Sequence record: MG589383 | DNA: 64,000 bases | From: Shigella phage phi25-307 | Direction: 5' to 3' (one strand) | Shown here: positions 1 through 51,541 of the stretch, in pieces | How positions within the stretch are numbered: the stretch's first letter is position 1 | How the letters are laid out: the number at the start of each line of letters is the position of its first letter | The notes under the pieces: model-generated | What the model was told of the DNA's origin: nothing | Database searches by the model: none | The model's input: only the letters and a program-made list of their open reading frames with translations | Translations under genes and position numbers: made by a program

Positions 1-275
1 CGTATGACGGTGATAATCAGATAACAGTTTTTGATGTAACATTTGCTTATCGCGTTATGCAATCAGGTGCTGTAAATAGACAGGCTGCTTTAGAATGGCT
101 GGAATCAGGACTTATTAGTAGTGTTTCAGGAATGTTTGGAAATAACCAGAATGATTCTGGTCTAGGAAGTGCAGTATCAAGACTTTCTAGATTAGGTGGG
201 ACCGCTGGAGGTGTGTCTAATATAAACACATTGACAGGTGTGGTGAATTCTGCGTCAAGAGTTTTAGGACTATAA
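1..275 (+). CDS. 3' end of a late structural gene, probably baseplate gene 54 (partial, 5' end outside window)
   Basis: Open frame from the window edge to TAA at 273-275; plus-strand orientation and position just upstream of alt match gene 54 in T4 order. Identity is by synteny only. Confidence 0.4.
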   Translation, partial: YDGDNQITVFDVTFAYRVMQSGAVNRQAALEWLESGLISSVSGMFGNNQNDSGLGSAVSRLSRLGGTAGGVSNINTLTGVVNSASRVLGL

Positions 276-280
276 AGAAA

Positions 281-303
281 AAAGGGAGACGTTGTCTCCC
301 TTT
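281..303. terminator. Bidirectional intrinsic terminator hairpin between convergent genes
   Basis: Perfect hairpin GGGAGAC-GTTG-GTCTCCC at 284-300, flanked by A-run on one side and T-run on the other; sits between the plus-strand stop at 275 and the minus-strand stop at 310. Confidence 0.6.
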
Positions 304-309
304 AGGGGT

Positions 310-603
310 TTATTTACGGAATGAAAGGAATGCTGGTGCTCGGAATGGAGTATCATCTTTAGAGTATTTAACTAATACGACCATTGGTACCTCTGTTTCT
401 AAATGACCCGTCACTACACCGACAAAAATTTGATCAGTGTGTTCAGGGTCACGAAAGTTTTTAAGAGGTTCCATAGCAATATGGAATGCACCTGGGAATA
501 CTCGATTCAATTCGTCAATCACAGCTTCGTTAAAAGCATCATCCGCTGGGATAACATCTTCAACTACTAGTTCTTGACCATTAAAGCGAAGCATAGATTT
601 CAT
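310..603 (-). CDS. Hypothetical protein, 97 aa (alt-downstream ORF)
   Basis: ORF-track ORF 310..675 trimmed to the ATG at 603, which follows GAGGAAAA and lies downstream of the early promoter at 634-661. Confidence 0.5.
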   Translation of the reverse strand: MKSMLRFNGQELVVEDVIPADDAFNEAVIDELNRVFPGAFHIAMEPLKNFRDPEHTDQIFVGVVTGHLETEVPMVVLVKYSKDDTPFRAPAFLSFRK

Positions 604-633
604 AACGTTTTCCTCATGTTGTTGATGGGATGA

Positions 634-2784: not shown

Positions 2785-2805
2785 CAAAAAGAGCCCGAAG
2801 GCTCT
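2785..2805 (-). terminator. Intrinsic terminator (UUCG-loop hairpin plus U-run)
   Basis: AGAGCC-CGAA-GGCTCT hairpin at 2790-2805, followed on the minus strand by TTTTT; abuts the stop of ORF 2805..2993. Confidence 0.6.
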
Positions 2806-6050: not shown

Positions 6051-6252
6051 TTATAATTTCAACATCAGCCCAATGGCCATATCCAGGTATACGGTCTTCG
6101 ATAGATAAATTTCCGTCATTTTTAGGCATTTTAATTGACGTAACGTATGGTTCTAAACGGTTTTCTGCATAATACGGAAAAACGTCTGTTACACGATAAG
6201 TAACTTCGATCATTTCCGTACCAAACAATTTCTGGATTAATTTATTCAACAT
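6034..6252 (-). CDS. Hypothetical protein, up to 72 aa (start uncertain)
   Basis: ORF overlaps neighbours at both ends; the true start may be the internal Met (MIEVTYR). Confidence 0.4.
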   Translation of the reverse strand: MLNKLIQKLFGTEMIEVTYRVTDVFPYYAENRLEPYVTSIKMPKNDGNLSIEDRIPGYGHWADVEIISVKDV

Positions 6253-6439
6253 GTTTCAACCCTTTAATAGGAGATAACTCTTTACCCATACGTATGTCAG
6301 AAGTCCAATCAACCCATTGAACAGCATACGCTTCATTGATAATTCCAGCGCCGGTTTTAAATTCAGGGAGAACTTTAAAAATCACCCCAGGAATTCCAAC
6401 ACCTTTTAATTGAACTGTTTGTGCTATTAAAAATTTCAT
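6242..6439 (-). CDS. Hypothetical protein, 65 aa
   Basis: ORF directly downstream of the early promoter at 6464-6493. Confidence 0.45.
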   Translation of the reverse strand: MKFLIAQTVQLKGVGIPGVIFKVLPEFKTGAGIINEAYAVQWVDWTSDIRMGKELSPIKGLKHVE

Positions 6440-6463
6440 ATTTTTCCACTTACTAAAGAAATC

Positions 6464-6493
6464 ATTATACTCTAATCCGTCCTTGGATGTAAA
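6464..6493 (-). promoter_or_regulatory. Early promoter (-35 TTTACA, -10 TATAAT)
   Basis: Minus strand reads GTTTACATCCAAGGACGGATTAGAGTATAAT. Confidence 0.5.
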
Positions 6494-7108
6494 CTACTTA
6501 ACGAAATTAATTTCTACTGGATGAACAACAGGTTGAGCAGTGATATATTGAGTAATTGCTTTCATGACTAGAGCTTCAGAACCAGGATTTTTCTCAACGA
6601 ATTCACGTGCTTGGTTATGAGCTTCAAGTTCACTTAGTAAACCACTTCGTTGGCATCCACGGTCTTGAGTACCCTGTTCAGATAAAAAGACGACGATGTA
6701 TTTTTCATCGTCATACGGTTTAGACGGTTGAGCAAATGTTCCTTTACTTCCAAAAGGAGAGTTATGACGCCACATCACGCCGTGAGGAGTTTCAACCTTC
6801 ATATATTCGTGCGGGCCATTTTTCTTAGTTTCTTGATGTGGAACTTCGTGGACCTTAGGGTTAGGACATTCAATAAAATGCTCATCTAAATCGGTCGAGA
6901 ATATTAAAGTAAAACAATTACTGAATTTACCAACACCTGCCTGATAAATTTTACCTTCAGAAGTTCTAATTTCACAAACCGAGCCGGCATCAGTAACTTC
7001 TAAAACTTCAAAAGGCTCGATAAGGTCATATGAGAACATGTTTTTAAGGCGTGGAGTAATATCCCCATTTTTAAAATTCATTTTATAAAAAGTATTAACT
7101 TTAAACAT
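6494..7108 (-). CDS. Hypothetical protein, 204 aa
   Basis: Long ORF preceded by GAGGAAA and the intercistronic hairpin at 7121-7136. Confidence 0.6.
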   Translation of the reverse strand: MFKVNTFYKMNFKNGDITPRLKNMFSYDLIEPFEVLEVTDAGSVCEIRTSEGKIYQAGVGKFSNCFTLIFSTDLDEHFIECPNPKVHEVPHQETKKNGPHEYMKVETPHGVMWRHNSPFGSKGTFAQPSKPYDDEKYIVVFLSEQGTQDRGCQRSGLLSELEAHNQAREFVEKNPGSEALVMKAITQYITAQPVVHPVEINFVK

Positions 7109-9593: not shown

Positions 9594-10175
9594 TTATTCA
9601 CCACAAAAGTTTCGGATTTGTTCCCAATTCAGAGAACGAAGATTATTACGAGAGTACTGAATTACTTCAATACCGGCTTGTTTTAGAATGTCTGCCCAAT
9701 TTTCAGGAGATCTGTCATATAATTCTGCGTATACAACCTTTTTAATACCTGACTGCGTAATAGCTTTAGTGCAATCAGGACATGGAGAAAGTGTCGTATA
9801 CAACGTAGCACCTTCAATAGAATTACCTTTACGAGCTGCAAACAAAATGGCATTCAATTCAGCATGGATTTCGTTATTAGCAGACCATGCACTATGAGCG
9901 GCCCGATGTTCTTTAGCCAAAACAAAATTATCCACCCGTCCAAATGCTGTAGTGCCTTCTTTATGTCCGGCAACGATGACCGGGCTTGGTTTATTCTTCA
10001 ACCAACCGTTTTCGGATGCATGTTCACAACAGTTAACGCCACCTGCTGGTGAGCCATTATATCCAGTAGAGATAATGCGTCCATCTTTTTCAATGACGGC
10101 ACCAACTTTCCATGAACAACATTTTGATTCTTGAGAAATCAGATATGCAATCTGAAGGTATGTGCTAGCTTTCAT
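9594..10175 (-). CDS. cd: dCMP deaminase, 193 aa
   Basis: Zinc-binding deaminase motifs HAELNAI and PCPDCTKAI; same length as T4 Cd. Confidence 0.9.
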   Translation of the reverse strand: MKASTYLQIAYLISQESKCCSWKVGAVIEKDGRIISTGYNGSPAGGVNCCEHASENGWLKNKPSPVIVAGHKEGTTAFGRVDNFVLAKEHRAAHSAWSANNEIHAELNAILFAARKGNSIEGATLYTTLSPCPDCTKAITQSGIKKVVYAELYDRSPENWADILKQAGIEVIQYSRNNLRSLNWEQIRNFCGE

Positions 10176-11167
10176 TATTGAACCTTATTAATATAAGTTA
10201 ACAGCTCTTTAGTTTGTTCCCAACCGATGCACGCATCGGTAACGGAAACGCCATAGGACATATTATCAGAAATTTTTTGATTTCCTTCATGTAGGAATGA
10301 TTCTATCATAATTCCTTTGACCAAATCATTAGCTGCTAAATTTTTACCAATACCAATTTGATTGCTATAATACCCATCAGCGTTTGCGTGGCTACAGTCA
10401 ACCATTACATAATGATTCAGACCTAATGCACTTGCTTTGTTAGAAGCTTCTTGAATATCAGAAGAATGATAGTTCGGGCCGTTAGTCCCGCCACGCAATA
10501 CGATATGCGTATTCTGATTACCTTCAGCTTCAACAATGCCTACAGTACCATCGACGTCCATACCCATATACCGATGAGGCCAGGCGGCACTATACATCGC
10601 GTCTGTAGCTACTTTAATAGAACCATTGGTTGCGTTCTTGAAGCCTACGCACATCGGTAGACCTGAAGCAATTTCACGATGTGTCTGACTTTCAGTCGTA
10701 CGGGCGCCAATAGCAACCCATGAGAAAATACCAGAAAGATACTTAATCGTGAATGGGTCTAATACTTCAGTTGCTAATGGAAGTCCCATACGTAGAAGTT
10801 TACGACACAATGTTCGTGCAACTATAAGACCGTGGTTCATATCAAAACTTCCGTCAAGATATGGATCATTTACAAGACCTTTCCAACCTACGGTAGTTCG
10901 AGGCTTTTCAAAATAAACGCGCATCACTAACAGAACATTAGGAAGACGAGTTTGAAGTTCAGCCAGACGTTTGCCGTATTCAACAGCAGCAATAGGGTCA
11001 TGAATTGAACAAGGACCTACAACAATAAGTTTGCGTGGGTCTTCACCGTTCATAATCGAATTAACTTGTTCGCGATGAGAAGCCACTTGTGATGCGTAAG
11101 CTTCCGACAAAGGAATAATCTCAGCCAGTTCTTTTGGAGAAATAAGTTTTCTGACGATAGGTAACAT
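10175..11167 (-). CDS. 3-deoxy-D-arabino-heptulosonate-7-phosphate (DAHP) synthase, class I alpha (AroG/AroF/AroH-like), 330 aa
   Basis: Long runs shared with remembered E. coli AroG: VVGPCSIHDP, MRVYFEKPRTTVGWKGL, IGARTTESQ.HRE.ASGL, VGFKN, ILRGG, SHAN, VTDACIGWE. Stop overlaps the cd start as TAATG; own SD TAAGGA. Confidence 0.9.
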   Translation of the reverse strand: MLPIVRKLISPKELAEIIPLSEAYASQVASHREQVNSIMNGEDPRKLIVVGPCSIHDPIAAVEYGKRLAELQTRLPNVLLVMRVYFEKPRTTVGWKGLVNDPYLDGSFDMNHGLIVARTLCRKLLRMGLPLATEVLDPFTIKYLSGIFSWVAIGARTTESQTHREIASGLPMCVGFKNATNGSIKVATDAMYSAAWPHRYMGMDVDGTVGIVEAEGNQNTHIVLRGGTNGPNYHSSDIQEASNKASALGLNHYVMVDCSHANADGYYSNQIGIGKNLAANDLVKGIMIESFLHEGNQKISDNMSYGVSVTDACIGWEQTKELLTYINKVQ

Positions 11168-20560: not shown

Positions 20561-21421
20561 TTATACCGCCATTTTAGCTTTGATAGCTGGATGTGATTCG
20601 TAATTTTTAAGAACGAAATCAGAATGTGTCATTGTTCCGGTAACCCAGTCCATTTGGATTTTTGTAGGCCAATTCTCAAAATTACTAGGCCAATTAATTT
20701 CAAGAGAACATAACTCTTTAGGTTCACGACGAAGAACTTCTTTGCATTGTTCTACATGATTGCTGTAGATATGCGTGTTGCCGCCTGAGAACACTAAATC
20801 ACCTGGGGTAAGGTTACACATCTTCGCTACAATATGCGTCAAGGCAGCGTACGAGGCAATGTTGAACGGCAGGCCTAAGAAAACATCTACACTGCGTTGA
20901 TACCATTGTAAATCAAGATGACCATTACGCACATTGAACTGATAGAACATATGGCAAGGAGGAAGAGCCATTTGATTTATTTCAGCTGGATTCCAGGCAG
21001 AAACAATTTGACGACGATCAGTTGGTAATTTTTTAATACGGTCGATTGTTTCAACTAATTGGTCTACACCACCAAAATCACGCCATTGCTTACCATAAAT
21101 AGGACCAAGTTCGCCACTATGATATCCAAGGTCTTTTGCCTGATTTTCATAGTTATCGTCCCAAATAGTTTTACCTTGAATAAGACTACCATGAGTACGA
21201 ATACGCAAATCATTAACATTGGTAGAACCAGACATGAACCATAATAGCTCGGCAATACAAGCTTTCCATGCTAATTTCTTAGTTGTTACCGCAGGGAATC
21301 CTTTAGTCAGATCCCAACGTAATTTAGTTCCGAACAGGGCAATAGTGCCGGTACCTGTACGGTCGTCTGTTTCGTAGCCATTTTCTAAGATATCTTTAAT
21401 TAGGTATTGGTATTGTTTCAT
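20561..21421 (-). CDS. td: Thymidylate synthase, 286 aa, uninterrupted
   Basis: Same length as T4 Td; active-site region ALPPCHMFYQF and LGLPFNIASYA; continuous ORF (no intron). Confidence 0.95.
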   Translation of the reverse strand: MKQYQYLIKDILENGYETDDRTGTGTIALFGTKLRWDLTKGFPAVTTKKLAWKACIAELLWFMSGSTNVNDLRIRTHGSLIQGKTIWDDNYENQAKDLGYHSGELGPIYGKQWRDFGGVDQLVETIDRIKKLPTDRRQIVSAWNPAEINQMALPPCHMFYQFNVRNGHLDLQWYQRSVDVFLGLPFNIASYAALTHIVAKMCNLTPGDLVFSGGNTHIYSNHVEQCKEVLRREPKELCSLEINWPSNFENWPTKIQMDWVTGTMTHSDFVLKNYESHPAIKAKMAV

Positions 21422-24078: not shown

Positions 24079-24732
24079 TTAATACTTACATGATTTGATT
24101 GTTTCTATGAACAATTTCTTAGCAGCATTTCCATCGATTTGAAGTATTTTTCGATATGCCTTTAATTTGGTAGAATAATTTTGCCAGACTAAATTGTCAG
24201 TAAGTTCGTCGTGCTTATCTATAATATTCAAAAATGAGTCCAACAATAAGAAAGTCTCAAATGAGATTATATTGCTTTGTAGCAATTTGAATATGTAGCT
24301 CGACTGAACGTTGTTATTATAATCAAATATCTCTTGAAGCGCACTAACTTCAACTTTCTTACTGAAATAGTAGATGTTACGTACGTCTTCAGCAAACGTC
24401 TCCTTGGCTTGTTTGAGACGTCCAATATATTCCCTATAGAAAACTAATGCATCAGCGTCTGATATCTCACCAATCCATGCGTCTTGGTTAGCAACTAAGT
24501 TGCTTATGAATATCAAGGTGAGTTCCTTCAATTTATATTTCTCTGCTAGTTTTTCAAAGAAATATTTATCTCGGCGTTTTTGATACGCATTATCCGAAAC
24601 ACGCATGCACCAGTTATATTTGATTACGTCATACCGACCACCAAAGTGGTTTTTGCACATCAAGTATAGTTTATATACTGATTTACCGTTAATATAACGT
24701 TCTCCGTCAGGAGGCATGCGTATTTTAATCAT
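24079..24732 (-). CDS. 59: Helicase loader gp59, 217 aa
   Basis: Same length as T4 gp59 and a close match to its remembered sequence (GERYI.GKSVYKLYLM...DVIKYNWCMRVSD.AYQKRRDKYFF). Confidence 0.9.
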   Translation of the reverse strand: MIKIRMPPDGERYINGKSVYKLYLMCKNHFGGRYDVIKYNWCMRVSDNAYQKRRDKYFFEKLAEKYKLKELTLIFISNLVANQDAWIGEISDADALVFYREYIGRLKQAKETFAEDVRNIYYFSKKVEVSALQEIFDYNNNVQSSYIFKLLQSNIISFETFLLLDSFLNIIDKHDELTDNLVWQNYSTKLKAYRKILQIDGNAAKKLFIETIKSCKY

Positions 24733-25408
24733 AGTTCCATCCAGGCCATTTTGAAGATTTAAGTCTATACGTAACTAGAGATGCAGAAATATTAAAAACA
24801 TCCGAAACTTCTGTGCATGACGAGTATTTTATACCATCAATAATTATAGGTTTTTGTTTTTTAATAGTTCTTTCTTTAGAATGCGGCTTTGAATTTGCTA
24901 TTCTAAGAGCTTCTTTGGTTGAATCAGGCATCGGCTTATTCGTTTTTCGCCCTTTTCGGACTTTACTCAAAGCTAATTTATGAGCTTCAGATAGTTTCTT
25001 ACCCTTATTAGGGGATGGTATTTTTCTTTCTAATCTGGTTTTAGATACTTTAGCCTTAGTCTCTTCAGATCTAGGTTTACCTAATTTAGAAAGTGAAATA
25101 GCCCTTTTAGCTTCATCACTTTGTTTTTTACCAGGGCCACCTTTACCACCGGGAACTAAGTTATAAGTATCAGTTCGCAAAACAAAATCTTCATTAACCA
25201 ATTCTGCTTCTTTTTTATAGGCGTCCTTGTCATTATCATATTCATAAAGAATTTCGGTATAAAAATTTTTTAGTCCATATTTAGCTTTGGCCGCTAATAT
25301 AGCGCGGCCTGATCCAATATACCAATCTTTCTCTTTATGTTTTTTGTGTACGCCTATATAAATTTTACCATTTATTTTATTGGTAGTTTTATACACAACG
25401 TATTTCAT
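24725..25408 (-). CDS. GIY-YIG homing endonuclease (Seg-like), 227 aa
   Basis: N-terminal GIY-YIG module VVYKTTNKINGKIYIGV..., basic C-terminal half with repeated K/R-rich DNA-binding-like segments; free-standing between gene 59 and gene 33. Confidence 0.8.
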   Translation of the reverse strand: MKYVVYKTTNKINGKIYIGVHKKHKEKDWYIGSGRAILAAKAKYGLKNFYTEILYEYDNDKDAYKKEAELVNEDFVLRTDTYNLVPGGKGGPGKKQSDEAKRAISLSKLGKPRSEETKAKVSKTRLERKIPSPNKGKKLSEAHKLALSKVRKGRKTNKPMPDSTKEALRIANSKPHSKERTIKKQKPIIIDGIKYSSCTEVSDVFNISASLVTYRLKSSKWPGWNYD

Positions 25409-40028: not shown

Positions 40029-41354
40029 TCAAAGTGCCTCCAAGTCTTTAGTGTACTCTGTCACAACATCAGTAGACTTCCAATACTCATTTTCTTCTTT
40101 CTTAGCTTTAGCTTCTTCTGCCAGTTTACGTGCTTCGTCGGAAGTGATATGGAAGATGTTAAGGCCTACCAGTTTATCGACATGTTCTTTATACATTTCG
40201 ATTTGTGCTAGCTCTTCAGTCAAAGCTTTACGAGTCTTGCCCTGAATCACAATTTCGCCACTGATAACTTTTTTGATGAAGTGTGCCTTAGCAAAAGCCA
40301 GTTTAAATGCTTTTTCAGATTCAAGGATTTTGTTGTCAATACGTTTCTGAACGTAAGTCTTACGGACTTCAACAAAATCTTTGATTAAGTCCACTACGTT
40401 ATCATAGACGGCTAATTTACCCTTTTCATTAATCACTGTGATGTTTTGTGAACGACGTTCGATGAGACTAAAATCTTTCATGATTTTTTCATGACGTAGC
40501 TCTTCATCATCAGGAAGCGAGTACTCTTTACGGAACTTCACCTTAAACCCAAAGCCGTGTTCACCACAATCATCTTCCCATGAGATTAGACCTTTGTCTT
40601 CCAATGGGTCAAGAACCTTACTCACATACGTTTCACGGTCGAATTTATATGGGATTTCAGTTATCTGCATTTGAGTGCGAGATGTGAACTTATATGTTCC
40701 GTGAATCTCATAACGCCCATCAACTTCGTGTACTTCACCACGGAATTCCGGGAATTCAACTTTTGGCTTAGTGACATTTTTACCTTGAAGAGCTTGTAAT
40801 ACGGCCTTTTTTACCGATTTAAAACTATGAGGCAGAATATTTGTTGCGTAACCGGTTGCAATACCAGAGACACCATTCAAAAGAACTGTCGGAATAATAG
40901 GAAGATAGAATTTTGGTGGAATGTGTTCTTTATCTTCATGGGCTGGAGCATATTCAGTATCTTTATATACGTTATAGAAATTTTTACTTACACGAGCAAA
41001 AATATAACGAGATGCTGCAGCTTTTTGGACTGTTCGAGAACCAAAGTTGCCTTGGCCATCTAACAGTGGATAGTTGTTGTTCCATGTGTTAGCCATCAAT
41101 GCACCTGCATCTTGTGCAGAAGATTCACCATGGTGATAACCTAAATCTGCAACACCGCCTGCAATTGACGCAAGTTTATGAAATTTTTCTTTATTACCAC
41201 GAGCCAAATCTAACGCACGATGAACCACAAAACGTTGAACCGGCTTAAATCCATCAATCATGTTTGGGATTGCACGGTTTTCAACGGTGTACATCGCGTA
41301 TGCTAAGGCTTCGTTATCAATAATACTTTTTAGATTACGAGAATTCAATTGCAT
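40029..41354 (-). CDS. 52: DNA topoisomerase II medium subunit gp52, 441 aa
   Basis: Size close to T4 gp52 (442 aa); GyrA-like N-terminal region with near-identity to remembered T4 gp52 (IDNEALAYAMYTVENRAIPNMIDGFKPVQRF). Confidence 0.95.
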   Translation of the reverse strand: MQLNSRNLKSIIDNEALAYAMYTVENRAIPNMIDGFKPVQRFVVHRALDLARGNKEKFHKLASIAGGVADLGYHHGESSAQDAGALMANTWNNNYPLLDGQGNFGSRTVQKAAASRYIFARVSKNFYNVYKDTEYAPAHEDKEHIPPKFYLPIIPTVLLNGVSGIATGYATNILPHSFKSVKKAVLQALQGKNVTKPKVEFPEFRGEVHEVDGRYEIHGTYKFTSRTQMQITEIPYKFDRETYVSKVLDPLEDKGLISWEDDCGEHGFGFKVKFRKEYSLPDDEELRHEKIMKDFSLIERRSQNITVINEKGKLAVYDNVVDLIKDFVEVRKTYVQKRIDNKILESEKAFKLAFAKAHFIKKVISGEIVIQGKTRKALTEELAQIEMYKEHVDKLVGLNIFHITSDEARKLAEEAKAKKEENEYWKSTDVVTEYTKDLEAL

Positions 41355-41358
41355 ATTT

Positions 41359-41499
41359 TCACCATATTAATGAACGAATAGCCATTATAACATCTGAAAT
41401 GAAAAGCACTACTTGGATTAGCCCAAACATCACACCATAGTACAGAACCGTAAGCAACAACAAGAGCCCGAAGGCTCCTGCTAAGATTTTCTTAATCAT
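41359..41499 (-). CDS. Small hydrophobic protein, 46 aa (52.1 position; uncertain)
   Basis: Hand translation MIKKILAGAFGLLLLLTVLYYGVMFGLIQVVLFISDVIMAIRSLIW; a UUCG hairpin (41463-41478) lies inside it, so it may be a terminator region rather than a gene. Confidence 0.3.
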   Translation of the reverse strand: MIKKILAGAFGLLLLLTVLYYGVMFGLIQVVLFISDVIMAIRSLIW

Positions 41500-47291: not shown

Positions 47292-48392
47292 TTACGCTGT
47301 GAAGATTTTATCCCACATCGCAACAACTGCATCTCGGTTATACTTCTTCCATACTGCTTCAGCACGTTTAACTCGAGCTTCGTATGTATCAGTGAATTCT
47401 AATACAGCTTTTGTGTAAAGCGCAACTACTTCTTTCTTAGGAGTAGAGGAATCAATTTCTACACGCACAGTATCTGGGTCGTATTCAAATGTCGCATGAG
47501 GATAATCCTTAAAAACTAACTGGATTACAGGGACACCTTTAGAGATGGCTTCAATAGAACTATTCTCTACCGTACCTGTGTCAGGACATGTATTAATAAG
47601 TGCTTTAGCTGTTTTAAGACGTTCCATGATTTCACTGTGTGGAGCATCAATAATAACAGGATATTTAGCTGGTGGTGCCCATTTGCTTGGACAGTATCCT
47701 ACACCATTTTCGCCTAGTGCTTTAATCGCTTCAAGAGCAACATCAGTACGACGCATTTTAGTGTCATAACGTTGTGCACTAATAATCAGATCAGTCGCCG
47801 GAAGAACTTCAGGTTTCTCATTCAAACAAATAACCGGATAATCTTCGGCTTCAAACAACGGATTTGCTCGCCAATAATCATAATCAATTTTGTCAGTCAG
47901 AGCTGAAGTCATATGGCAATATTTACGTTCAAATTCACGGAAGGCTTTAGTAGGAGCATAACTCTTACCGCCATTCTTATGAATTTGAATAGTCTGGTCC
48001 CAAATTTGAACAATGCCACGAGATACCGGTTCAAATGGTGTTGCCATAAAATTCTTATGAACTTTAGAGAGACCTGCGTCTTTAATTGCCTGAACGGTTA
48101 GTTTAGTCGGTTCCATAGTAACAACAAAATCGTATTCATGGATGCCGGCTAGTTCAACAATCTTACGAGCCATAGTATAACTCATACCTAGACTGAATTT
48201 AGTCAGATGACCAACAGGATGGTGTGTAACTTTCCAGTCACCAAACGTGTCATTATCAAAGCCGATATAATCAATATCAGCACCAATGGACACAAGATAT
48301 TTCAACACATTTAAATGTACTGCTTCAAGGCCACCTTGTACACGGTCAGGATTAAATGGGACTGCACGAGATGGGATAAACATAACTTTCAT
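47292..48392 (-). CDS. GT-B fold glycosyltransferase-like protein (GT4-like motifs), 366 aa
   Basis: N-terminal Rossmann start MKVMFIPS...GGLEAVHLNVLKYLVSIG.DIDYIGF and C-terminal E-x7-E-like segment TGTVENSSIEAISKGVPVIQL resemble retaining GT-B glycosyltransferases; no obvious match to remembered T4 alpha- or beta-glucosyltransferase N-termini. Confidence 0.55.
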   Translation of the reverse strand: MKVMFIPSRAVPFNPDRVQGGLEAVHLNVLKYLVSIGADIDYIGFDNDTFGDWKVTHHPVGHLTKFSLGMSYTMARKIVELAGIHEYDFVVTMEPTKLTVQAIKDAGLSKVHKNFMATPFEPVSRGIVQIWDQTIQIHKNGGKSYAPTKAFREFERKYCHMTSALTDKIDYDYWRANPLFEAEDYPVICLNEKPEVLPATDLIISAQRYDTKMRRTDVALEAIKALGENGVGYCPSKWAPPAKYPVIIDAPHSEIMERLKTAKALINTCPDTGTVENSSIEAISKGVPVIQLVFKDYPHATFEYDPDTVRVEIDSSTPKKEVVALYTKAVLEFTDTYEARVKRAEAVWKKYNRDAVVAMWDKIFTA

Positions 48393-48404: not shown

Positions 48405-48436
48405 TTAAAATTAAAATGAAGCTCCCGAAGGAGCTT
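48405..48436 (-). terminator. Intrinsic terminator overlapping the HNH endonuclease stop codon
   Basis: AAGCUCC-UUCG-GGAGCUU hairpin (48419-48436) followed by CAUUUUAAUUUU on the minus strand. Confidence 0.6.
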
Positions 48437-49232
48437 AGGACATCCAACACATTTTATAACCTTTGCAGGTTCTGTTAGGATTATTTAATGCTTTCAATAT
48501 ATTAGAAGACCCTATATCTAAATACTCCCTTAATTCATAAAGATAGTTAAAATCAATAGTTTCACCTGTTTTTACACTTGTGATTCTTATAGGCCTTCTT
48601 TCATATTTAGATTTATACAACTCTCTAGTCTTAGCTTTAGTTTCTTCTGACCTAGGAGTGTATGGTTTAAATCCTTTTGTTTTAAATGTTTCCATTCTTG
48701 ATTTAGTTATTTTATCCTGGTGTTCTTTTGTTTTTACAGGTGCTTTTCGCCCATTCTCCCAAGATAACTTGTTGGCCTGTATTATTTTATCTATTGCTTC
48801 TTGCGTATGAGTTTTACCATAAAATGGATTTAATTCGCCTATACGTTGTGAAGCAATATGTGACATTAATTCTCTTGTTGCTTTAGTATGTTTTTTACCT
48901 TTAAATGGGTTGCCATTTTTAGCAATCCATTCTTTCATAAATCTAGAGTGCTCTTTAGAGAATTCTTGTTTAAGCCAATCATAATCTCTAGAATTTCTAG
49001 CTCCCATGTAAAAAGCTCTAATAGCCATAAGCATAGAACGGTTCTTATGAATTTTATAAAGCAATAAATGGGCGATAAAATGCTCTCTAGGGGTCATTTT
49101 AACTAGATTTGATTTAGCATTACTCCCACCCATAGATTTAGGCAAAATATGGTGAGTTTCAGTATAATTAGGAATAGTGCTGCGGTTTTTAGCCGCAGCG
49201 ATAAGTTTATCATAAATTTTACGATAATTCAT
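48435..49232 (-). CDS. HNH homing endonuclease (Mob-like), 265 aa
   Basis: HNH motif TETHHILPKSMGGSN...NLVKMTPREHFIAH and repeated NPF(K/Y)GK.HT NUMOD-like motifs; start overlaps the gene 39 stop (TAATG). Confidence 0.8.
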   Translation of the reverse strand: MNYRKIYDKLIAAAKNRSTIPNYTETHHILPKSMGGSNAKSNLVKMTPREHFIAHLLLYKIHKNRSMLMAIRAFYMGARNSRDYDWLKQEFSKEHSRFMKEWIAKNGNPFKGKKHTKATRELMSHIASQRIGELNPFYGKTHTQEAIDKIIQANKLSWENGRKAPVKTKEHQDKITKSRMETFKTKGFKPYTPRSEETKAKTRELYKSKYERRPIRITSVKTGETIDFNYLYELREYLDIGSSNILKALNNPNRTCKGYKMCWMS

Positions 49233-51052
49233 TATCCTAGCATCCAATCTTTACGGAGTTCAGGGTCGTTACCCATGAGCATTTCAAATAGTTCTTTCCA
49301 ATTTTCAGGAAGTTTAACTACGTCGTACACAGGGTTTTGAATCATTTCTTTATATTCATCCCGCTGAAGTGAGCCCAATCCCTTGATGTATCGAATACTA
49401 TGCTTAGGCAGTGTATCTTTGGCTTCTTCATACTCAGCTACAGTATAAAACCATTTTTGAGTTTTGCCAATTTGTGCAATAATTACAGGCGTTTTAACAA
49501 AGCGAATACGTCCTTGTTCAAACAATTCAGGCCAATTACTAAAGAAAGCAAGCAAAGCCGGATAAATACTTCCAAGACCGTCATGATCGGCATCGGTCAT
49601 AATTGCAATATTACGATAGTTCGTATTCTCTGCCTTTTCACCAAGAATAAGACCTGTGATAGCACAGATATCAAAGAGCTCTTTGTTCTTCATCATATCA
49701 GCATATGACATACCCCAGCTATTCATCACCTTACCACGTAATGGGAATCCACCGTGTAGTTCACGGTCACGAACATCAATGAGATAACCAATTGCCGAAT
49801 CACCTTCTGTTAAAAACAATGTCGTATCTGCATCTTTACCACATTGGTTAGCTTTAATATGCTTATGAACCTTAGCTTTAGTTGCCTTTTTAGCTGCTTT
49901 AGTTTCTGCAGCCTTTTCTGCTGCCAATTTACGAGCTAATGCTGCTTCAACAATAGGCATAATCAAAGCTTCATTTTTAAGAAGTGCCTGAGCAATTTTC
50001 TTAGCATCTAATTGGATATGATTACGAATATCACCATACGTTGACGTTAAACGTTCTTTAGTCTGAGAATCAAAACGCATGTTGCTCATGTCTCTAATAA
50101 ACATCAACATTGTGAGGCATTCTTTAACACGAGCTTTAGTGACTTCAATACCCTTATATTTCTTTTTAATACCGGGCAAAAGATGTTCGCAGATATCATC
50201 CATTACACATTCAACATGATGACCACCATTTTTAGTATGGATGTTATTCACATAAGTTAAATGACGGAAGCCATCTGGTGATGTTGTGAATGCTATAGAG
50301 ACTTTATCATTTTCTTGAATGATGTTATCTTCGCCAAATTGTTTAGCAAATCGTTTAAAATTACCATCAACCTTTTTACCATTAAATGTGAACTTGATAT
50401 CAGGATAAACGACTGCCAATGTTTGAAGACGGTCTAAAGTAATATCTAAATAAATTTGAGATAAATTATGCTCTTCAAATGAAGAGAAATCAGGAGTGAA
50501 GATTACTTTAGTGCCTTTACCTTTAGATTTCTTAGAAGACCATGATTTGTTTTCCATTCCGTTTGAACAGTTAACAGTGATTTCATTTTCGCCATCTGAC
50601 GTGATGCCTGTAAACAACGTAGAGAAGATATTAGTTAAACTACTCCCGACGCCGTTCATACCACCAGTCTTGCGTTCAGAGTCATCACCAAAGTTACCAC
50701 CGGCCTTTGGAATAGTCCAGGCCGCTACAGGCCCAGGAATTTGTTCACCTGTTTGGTCGGTAACTAAACCTTGAGGAATACCACGTCCGTTATCTTCCAC
50801 TGAGACTTGATTATTTTTAATTTGCACATCAATTTTATTTGCAAACTTAAATGATGTACGAATAGCTTCATCAACCGAGTTGTCAATAATCTCATCGATT
50901 AATTTAACAAGACCAGGAACATATTCAACTTGTTGATATTTACCAAACAAAAAACGCTCATGGGCTTCTTTAGCCGAAGAACCAATATACATGCCACTGC
51001 GTTTCTTAATATGTTCTACATCTGACAATACCTTAATTTCATTTTTAATCAT
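49232..51052 (-). CDS. 39: DNA topoisomerase II large subunit, single fused ORF equivalent to T4 39 plus 60, 606 aa
   Basis: GyrB-like ATPase N-terminus (HIKKRSGMYIGS, VDEAIR...DNGRGIP) and TOPRIM region in one continuous frame. Confidence 0.92.
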   Translation of the reverse strand: MIKNEIKVLSDVEHIKKRSGMYIGSSAKEAHERFLFGKYQQVEYVPGLVKLIDEIIDNSVDEAIRTSFKFANKIDVQIKNNQVSVEDNGRGIPQGLVTDQTGEQIPGPVAAWTIPKAGGNFGDDSERKTGGMNGVGSSLTNIFSTLFTGITSDGENEITVNCSNGMENKSWSSKKSKGKGTKVIFTPDFSSFEEHNLSQIYLDITLDRLQTLAVVYPDIKFTFNGKKVDGNFKRFAKQFGEDNIIQENDKVSIAFTTSPDGFRHLTYVNNIHTKNGGHHVECVMDDICEHLLPGIKKKYKGIEVTKARVKECLTMLMFIRDMSNMRFDSQTKERLTSTYGDIRNHIQLDAKKIAQALLKNEALIMPIVEAALARKLAAEKAAETKAAKKATKAKVHKHIKANQCGKDADTTLFLTEGDSAIGYLIDVRDRELHGGFPLRGKVMNSWGMSYADMMKNKELFDICAITGLILGEKAENTNYRNIAIMTDADHDGLGSIYPALLAFFSNWPELFEQGRIRFVKTPVIIAQIGKTQKWFYTVAEYEEAKDTLPKHSIRYIKGLGSLQRDEYKEMIQNPVYDVVKLPENWKELFEMLMGNDPELRKDWMLG

Positions 51053-51100: not shown

Positions 51101-51115
51101 AAAGGGCCGAAGCCC
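51101..51115 (-). terminator. Intrinsic terminator (GGGC-UUCG-GCCC plus UUUUUG)
   Basis: Short GC hairpin with UUCG loop directly after the stop of ORF 51116..51541. Confidence 0.5.
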
Positions 51116-51541
51116 TTATTTAAATTTAATTTTCTGAAGTGCATCAATTGCAGCCAAACGCCCTTGTTCACTTTTAACTGTAATGACCACATCGCCTGAT
51201 ACGATCACCGAACCATCAACAAATTCTATAGAGCCTTTTTTGAAATCGACAGATGTATCTGGTTCCGGAACTTCTTCAAAGAATTTAAATTCTGCACCAT
51301 AAAGCAGAATATCACCTTGCATACTATGAATAGTTCGGCCATAATCGCCTACGGCTTCTACAGCAATCACAGAAACGCCGTAACCAATCATCTCTTCCAC
51401 AATAAAATCTTTGGACAATAAAGTAGTATGCAGATTAGTATTAAGACGTTTACCAGTCGTATTAAGAATTCTCAAGAAATTATCTTCCTGTCCTTTGATA
51501 ATACGATATTTCTTACCAACTTCAAAACCTTTAAAAGCCAT
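51116..51541 (-). CDS. Hypothetical protein, 141 aa
   Basis: ORF upstream of gene 39. Confidence 0.55.
   Translation of the reverse strand: MAFKGFEVGKKYRIIKGQEDNFLRILNTTGKRLNTNLHTTLLSKDFIVEEMIGYGVSVIAVEAVGDYGRTIHSMQGDILLYGAEFKFFEEVPEPDTSVDFKKGSIEFVDGSVIVSGDVVITVKSEQGRLAAIDALQKIKFK

Follow-up and report, generated by a model that had tools for sequence, protein, structure and literature searches.

In phage T4 the large subunit of the type IIA topoisomerase is encoded in two pieces, genes 39 and 60: the gene is split at about aa 473, its parts carry insert-derived tails, a 50-nt coding gap has to be bypassed, and MobA is encoded between the halves. Such tails have been described for the MobA element (bioRxiv 10.1101/2022.08.31.505936). 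In the stretch of Shigella phage phi25-307 that was analysed here (sequence record MG589383; 64,000 nucleotides, called the window), both parts appear to be read from one ORF. The locus therefore raises the question of whether this is a derived, fused gene, as the first-pass annotation had worded it, or one that was never split, and of whether the locus is free of mobile DNA, which that annotation had also claimed. The features on which the first part of the answer rests are as follows.

49232..51052, minus strand: gene 39, unsplit, for the GyrB-like large subunit of the phage type IIA topoisomerase (ATG start, 606 aa)

49631..49642, minus strand: codons for GEKA, aa 471-474, the point at which the MobA element breaks T4 gene 39; continuous here

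49577..49594, minus strand: codons for DADHDG, in which G492 (GGT, 49579..49577) corresponds to the GGA take-off codon of T4, with no 50-nt gap after it

40029..41354, minus strand: gene 52, for the GyrA-like medium subunit that partners gp39 (441 aa; Pfam DNA_topoisoIV 6.5e-78; phrog_551)

The single 606-aa ORF exists at 49232..51052 exactly as first annotated, and at the base composition of the window the chance of meeting 606 sense codons in a row is about 8e-20. With gp39, gp60 and the bypass coordinates taken from the T4 reference record, BLASTP aligned T4 gp39 aa 1-473 with window aa 1-474 (79% identity, E=0) and T4 gp60 aa 27-158 with window aa 473-604 (83% identity, E=2e-84), so that the alignment proposed in the first-pass annotation, once run, placed the two parts collinearly in one frame. 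A tblastn search of the whole window for a gp60-equivalent region that was missing or encoded elsewhere returned two gp39/gp60 matches only (51052->49631 and 49636->49241), both in the same frame; the gp60-equivalent part is thus present once, within gene 39. T6 gp39, from its solved structure (8ylu_C), aligned in one stretch (window 1-604 to T6 1-603, 1152 bits), and an artificial T4 gp39-gp60 fusion aligned in two.

Nothing of the T4 interruption was found in this gene. MobA inserted into gene 39 at aa 466-473 (bioRxiv 10.1101/2022.08.31.505936); here the alignment is unbroken across these residues, with no extra residues and no insert-derived C- or N-terminal extensions, and by BLASTP the T4 tails (gp39 aa 474-516 and gp60 aa 1-26) have no counterpart in the window gene. 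Where T4 has its take-off codon, the window has an uninterrupted GAC GGT CTT GGA (D491 G492 L G; 49582..49571). When the whole window was searched for the 50-nt bypass sequence, the best match was only 12 nt long and lay in unrelated hairpins elsewhere. No intein domain was detected in the product with Pfam, and scanning the entire window with Rfam at the gathering threshold gave no hits, which leaves the gene and its surroundings without a group I intron or any other curated RNA.

The product has the complete architecture expected of such a subunit. Pfam recovered HATPase_c (3.5e-11) and DNA_gyraseB (2.8e-14), and TOPRIM_C scored 26.3 bits, under its curated cut-off of 29. The GHKL ATPase motifs are in place (N-box DNSVDE, aa 57-62; G1 DNGRGIP, aa 87-93; G2 GGMNGVGSS, aa 130-138), as are a transducer domain with its QTK loop (SQTKERL, aa 329-335) and both halves of TOPRIM (EGDSA, aa 416-420, and DADHDG, aa 487-492) in the same ORF. 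The chain is accordingly a GHKL ATPase, a transducer and a whole TOPRIM domain in one polypeptide and, as far as can be judged from sequence, it has every testable defining feature of the unsplit T-even gp39 type of type IIA topoisomerase B subunit. By analogy with T6 and T2, gp39 and gp52 are expected to assemble into a heterotetrameric type IIA topoisomerase made of two kinds of subunit, and the T6 enzyme (PMC11461880) suggests that the complex would relax DNA in an ATP-dependent manner.

To place this arrangement among other phages, phage records were surveyed with a 101-aa probe that covers both sides of the T4 split point. Of the 1985 records that matched, 1912 (96%) are uninterrupted there; just 43 phage records contain the T4 mobA region. 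T2 and T6 have a two-subunit topoisomerase and an unsplit gene (PMC11461880), and Manning & Atkins described unsplit genes as 'parental' and MobA insertions as recent and repeated (bioRxiv 10.1101/2022.08.31.505936). Because about 96% of homologue records are contiguous and T2, T6 and RB69 are all unsplit, the unsplit form of gene 39 is the norm. The word 'fused', which implies a derived state, is therefore a poor description, and 'unsplit' fits better. The arrangement is also already known, from the annotation of RB69 and from the structure of the T6 protein. The rare exception is T4, with its split gene and ribosome-skipping gap, and not the window phage; the three-subunit enzyme and 50-nt bypass of T4 exist because a MobA cassette inserted there, and the window genome never received one.

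The 5-kb neighbourhood of the gene matches Mosigvirus phages, SQ17 among them, at 98.4% identity, and the window gene order (rIIA, rIIA.1, a 366-aa ORF resembling ORF003c, gene 39) is that of RB69; on these grounds we assign the phage to Mosigvirus (RB69-like). The ORF is an ordinary gene 39 from a T-even phage of this genus and was never split.

The absence of mobile DNA, as first annotated, holds for one end of the question only. There is no MobA or bypass cassette at the TOPRIM site, but a Mob-family HNH gene abuts the gene 39 stop codon at 49232. Two corrections follow that should be useful: it is T4 that is unusual, and the gene 39 locus cannot be described as having 'no mobile insertion'. 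The features at the 3' end of gene 39 are listed below.

48435..49232, minus strand: free-standing Mob-family HNH/NUMOD3 homing endonuclease gene (265 aa), whose ATG overlaps the gene 39 stop (TAATG)

48441..49240, minus strand: insertion of 800 bp relative to the empty allele (pEK20, RB69), flanked by a 7-nt direct repeat, TTGGATG

48419..48436, minus strand: hairpin with a UUCG loop and a T-rich tail (pattern match), which follows the gene 39 stop in empty alleles and the HNH gene here

49247..49370, minus strand: rewritten gene 39 3' end, holding 20 of the 42 nucleotide differences from pEK20 in the whole gene

49349..49370, minus strand: sub-patch 1, SLQRDEYKE in place of SLEKSEYRE

49247..49279, minus strand: sub-patch 2, GNDPELRKDWMLG and stop in place of GDDSELRKEWMS and stop

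The HNH ORF starts in the TAATG overlap with the topoisomerase stop, with AGGA just 2 nt upstream. Its HNH motif (HHILPKSMGG...N...EH..AH) and NUMOD3 are intact (Pfam NUMOD3, 5e-09), and it matches phrog_655, 'homing endonuclease', at 1.3e-55; a PDB sequence search with the protein gave no match. The gene has been annotated as 'homing endonuclease' in several genomes and has received a passing mention for phiC120, and we found no study of its target or mobility in the literature. The region contains no excess of promoter-like sites, with 14 counted where 17 were expected. The downstream hairpin matches the pattern of a terminator, but its fold energy is no more favourable than that of shuffled sequences (z = -0.36), and it is at most a candidate terminator.

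Comparison with 98%-identical relatives from which the insertion is missing, e.g. pEK20, revealed how the gene is seated. The TTGGATG repeat copies lie at 49247..49241 and 48447..48441. In pEK20, gene 39 ends ..GAATGGATG TCC TAA and is followed by the hairpin, and in the window it ends ..GATTGGATG CTA GGA TAA, which changes the C-terminal codons from EWMS-stop to DWMLG-stop in the HNH-carrying allele. The HNH ORF itself ends ..TGT TGG ATG TCC TAA (..CWMS-stop), after which comes the same hairpin as in the empty allele. Since this is the end of the empty-allele gene 39, the original terminal codons and stop of gene 39 have been reused by the HNH ORF.

The insertion is accompanied by a rewritten gene 39 terminus. 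Between window and pEK20, the clustering of 20 of 42 differences in the last 124 nt of the gene (49247..49370) is far from random (Fisher p = 2e-13), and protein identity is 555/557 before the rewritten part and 40/48 after it. The patch goes beyond synonymous sites, with eight substitutions and one extra residue in the last 48 aa. All 26 HNH-carrying records had the rewritten allele; among records without the HNH gene it was found in full in seven, with the ordinary allele in 149. The association between gene and allele (Fisher 2e-25) is uncorrected for kinship among records, and because the 26 records are inter-related (21 distinct phages), such statistics overstate independence. No phage group was found for which the rewritten C-terminus is native: 33 records were at least 99% identical to it, two were at 90-95% and proved to be partial recombinants, and the rest were at most 87%.

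Rewritten alleles that lack the HNH gene fall into several forms. TH12, LF82-4 and OLB35 keep both sub-patches, and in them the new stop is separated from the old ATGTCCTAA by a 16-nt relic, CTTGGTTAATTGATAG; these could represent a pre-insertion lineage rather than deletion derivatives. JM17, a Mosigvirus, has sub-patch 1 alone (49349..49370, SLQRDEYKE), and the Tequatrovirus SP21535 has a window-like tract of ~170 nt around sub-patch 1 in a gene that is otherwise T4-like.

The HNH gene was present in 26 phage records, always beside the topoisomerase large-subunit gene and at the same insertion site. Its copies are 98.7-99.9% identical as DNA and 98.9-100% as protein, whereas the host gene 39 is just ~70-80% identical. 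Two of the 26 records gave the HNH match in two pieces, and some copies may thus be decaying. The clearest comparison was with Tequatrovirus fPS-90. Its gene 39 is 68-87% identical to that of the window (100-nt bins, 50999 down to 49600; lower across the start), and from 49648 through the HNH gene to 48344 identity is 99-100%. The tract extends into the Mosigvirus 366-aa (ORF003c-like) gene, of which it holds the first 49 nt, and is then joined at a CTGACC microhomology to what is left of the resident T4-type gene end, a 26-nt relic (TTCGTAAAGAATGGATGAGCCAGTAG). AV109 showed the same pattern, with the identity jump at ~49900 and a background of 65-87% for both phages; the 227-aa ORF upstream of its gene 39 did not match the 227-aa Seg-like ORF of the window. 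Because the fPS-90 tract combines a Mosigvirus flank with a relic junction, it indicates transfer from a Mosigvirus donor to a Tequatrovirus. Judged from these alignments, horizontal movement of the HNH cassette from Mosigvirus to Tequatrovirus, together with flanking, co-converted DNA, is shown.

These observations suggest how the cassette might operate. A promoter-less Mob-family HNH cassette has inserted exactly at the stop codon of gene 39. Promoter-less endonuclease cassettes of T4 are expressed by read-through and stop-start coupling (review PMC2988022), and the HNH gene is probably co-transcribed with gene 39 by read-through and translated at a low level by coupling of its start to the gene 39 stop. 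The protein would then probably nick or cut endonuclease-free gene 39 alleles in their last ~150 bp. The putative cut site most likely lies around the equivalent of 49346..49372: short conversion tracts centred on sub-patch 1, as in JM17 and SP21535, are the expected leftovers of the repair of a break close by, and the likely recognition or cleavage site is placed there for that reason. After cutting, the cassette would be copied in by recombinational repair, and the rewritten codons carried with it would make its own host allele resistant. We tentatively propose, as a reading with a real but less than even claim, that gene 39, the target of MobA, hosts a second Mob-family cassette independent of MobA and made up of the HNH gene together with the ~45 rewritten codons at the end of gene 39. 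This cassette would shield the allele that carries it by replacing codons and the C-terminus and not by a bypass, and its jump from Mosigvirus to Tequatrovirus would have left resistant, endonuclease-free alleles behind (TH12, JM17, SP21535).

The same data can be read in a second way, in which the HNH gene is carried along as a passenger, either inert or domesticated, and gene 39 owes its divergent 3' end to ordinary lineage variation or recombination mosaicism, with neither a homing target nor immunity. T-even genomes are mosaic, and rewritten alleles do occur without the HNH gene. Moreover, the patch alters amino acids, so it could be hitch-hiking donor sequence instead of selected immunity. 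Set against this are the near-identity of HNH copies (98.7-99.9% as DNA) in phages that share only ~70-80% identity in gene 39, a near-identity tract centred on the HNH gene, an fPS-90 copy that brought Mosigvirus flanking DNA and an illegitimate junction with it, a constant insertion site, and a rewritten allele that was found nowhere independent of the HNH lineage. We consider the passenger reading unlikely.

Still less probable is that the endonuclease beside gene 39 is MobA itself, relocated to the end of the gene as a displaced mobile insertion. Both endonucleases are associated with gene 39, and the first 71 aa of the HNH protein are 59-61% identical to the intact MobA of T4T. Past aa 71, however, there is no similarity, whereas true MobAs, those of T4T and Shewanella phage Thanatos-1, align from end to end with 42% identity (E=3e-65) and have C-terminal motifs in common that are missing from the window protein. 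The N-terminal domain is also matched about as well by MobE and MobD, and the HNH gene has no terminal extensions, replacement homology region or bypass alongside. Nor does any MobA orthologue with full-length homology lie between gene halves in the window. The identity of the HNH protein with MobA had been entertained in its own right and was rejected, the likeness being confined to those 71 aa and extensions and bypass being lacking. The gene is best described as an uncharacterised endonuclease, assigned to the Mob family by its sequence features, with a DNA-binding region predicted to differ from that of MobA.

It is hardly credible that a MobA/bypass cassette once split gene 39 and was later excised in a 'hit and run' re-fusion: although such cases are known from an Aeromonas phage clade (Manning & Atkins, bioRxiv 10.1101/2022.08.31.505936) and gene 39 does adjoin a Mob-family endonuclease, re-fused genes retain homologues of the T4-type extensions at the insertion site (same source) and the window gene has none, with no counterpart of the non-aligning T4 tails, a gap-free alignment to T6 gp39 over aa 466-492, and a length of 606 aa, one more than the 605 aa of the unsplit pEK20 and fPS-90 genes.

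Taken as a whole, we are highly confident that the locus is best explained by a never-split gene 39 for a two-subunit enzyme of the T6/T2 kind, with an HNH homing cassette inserted at its stop codon. The cassette offers a natural comparison with MobA, as it occupies the same host gene at a different site and would avoid self-cleavage by different means. It also documents DNA flow from a Mosigvirus with arabinosyl-hmC DNA to a Tequatrovirus. The interest of this is modest and mainly for specialists.

One of the closest known systems is RB69, the Mosigvirus type species, whose gp39 (NP_861694) is annotated, unsplit and 606 aa long, with 575/605 residues identical to window gp39. Unlike the window, RB69 has the empty allele, with no HNH gene, an ordinary ..EWMS-stop end and the hairpin straight after the stop. 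The gp39 of T6 and T2 (PDB 8ylu and related, PMC11461880) shares domain order, motifs and pairing with gp52; it differs in sequence, with identity of about 79-83%, as measured against T4 gp39 and gp60, and in the last ~48 residues, where the window protein has cassette-linked substitutions and an LG-stop terminus. T4 genes 39 and 60 encode homologous protein parts, and T4 likewise has a Mob-family HNH gene tied to this host gene, but of its split, tails, coding gap and intervening MobA the window has none. The HNH gene resembles the free-standing Mob/Seg homing endonucleases of T-even phages (PMC2988022), e.g. MobE between nrdA and nrdB: it too is a promoter-less ORF that overlaps the end of the upstream gene, has a conserved essential gene as its neighbour, is present in some close relatives and absent from others, and is co-transferred with its flanks. 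It differs from them in its target, the 3' end of gene 39, in its C-terminal DNA-binding region, and in having borrowed the last codons and stop of its host gene.

The rewritten 3' end of gene 39, the unsplit topoisomerase large-subunit gene, spans 49247..49370 and is linked to the adjoining HNH gene. Relatives that are 98% identical lack this endonuclease gene, which is common to the window and Tequatrovirus fPS-90 at 99-100% identity. The features concerned, here and elsewhere in the window and in phage AV109, were as follows.

Features of the window, and one of AV109
48435..49232 (-), Mob-family HNH/NUMOD3 homing endonuclease gene, adjoining the gene 39 stop codon
48419..48436 and 51102..51117, UUCG-loop hairpins (n = 2) bracketing the gene 39 and HNH unit
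47292..48392 (-), 366-aa ORF, 361/366 identical to RB69 ORF003c
24725..25408 (-), 227-aa GIY-YIG/I-TevI-DNA-binding (Seg-like) homing endonuclease ORF, overlapping the gene 59 start
20561..21421 (-), thymidylate synthase gene td, one 286-aa ORF
10175..11167 (-), 330-aa DAHP-synthase-family protein (Pfam, 1.8e-74; phrog_5045)
AV109 6104..6787, 227-aa ORF with NUMOD3-like repeats, overlapping the gene 39 start

At the 3' junction, phages TH12, LF82-4, and OLB35 were missing the HNH gene and had retained the rewritten gene 39 end. In these three genomes a 16-nt relic, CTTGGTTAATTGATAG, precedes the old ATGTCCTAA and also encodes the terminal LG*, via synonymous changes. The position of the AV109 ORF places putative endonuclease genes on either side of gene 39 in that phage, and the 5' two-thirds of its gene 39 showed only ~50-86% identity to the window (100-nt bins). 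A stem-loop core of 12 nt that the T4 bypass hairpin contains, AGCCTTCGGGCT, was also detected at ~2792..2803 and ~41465..41476, where the copies are apparently ordinary intergenic hairpins.

Beyond this locus, the DAHP-synthase-family ORF is an auxiliary metabolic gene for which no T4 counterpart is known. The Seg-like ORF, which lies in a stretch of low GC (0.34), is probably a further polymorphic mobile gene, because the close relative SQ17 has no annotated ORF at the same site. Additionally, td is annotated in SQ17 as two pieces around a homing endonuclease, whereas in the window it is a single ORF in which Rfam found no group I intron. RB69 ORF003c is a proposed arabinosyl-hmC transferase (PMC6024577), and the near identity of the 366-aa ORF to it suggests that the phage DNA carries arabinosylated hmC. 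The position held by this ORF003c-like gene in the window is occupied in T4 by gene 60.
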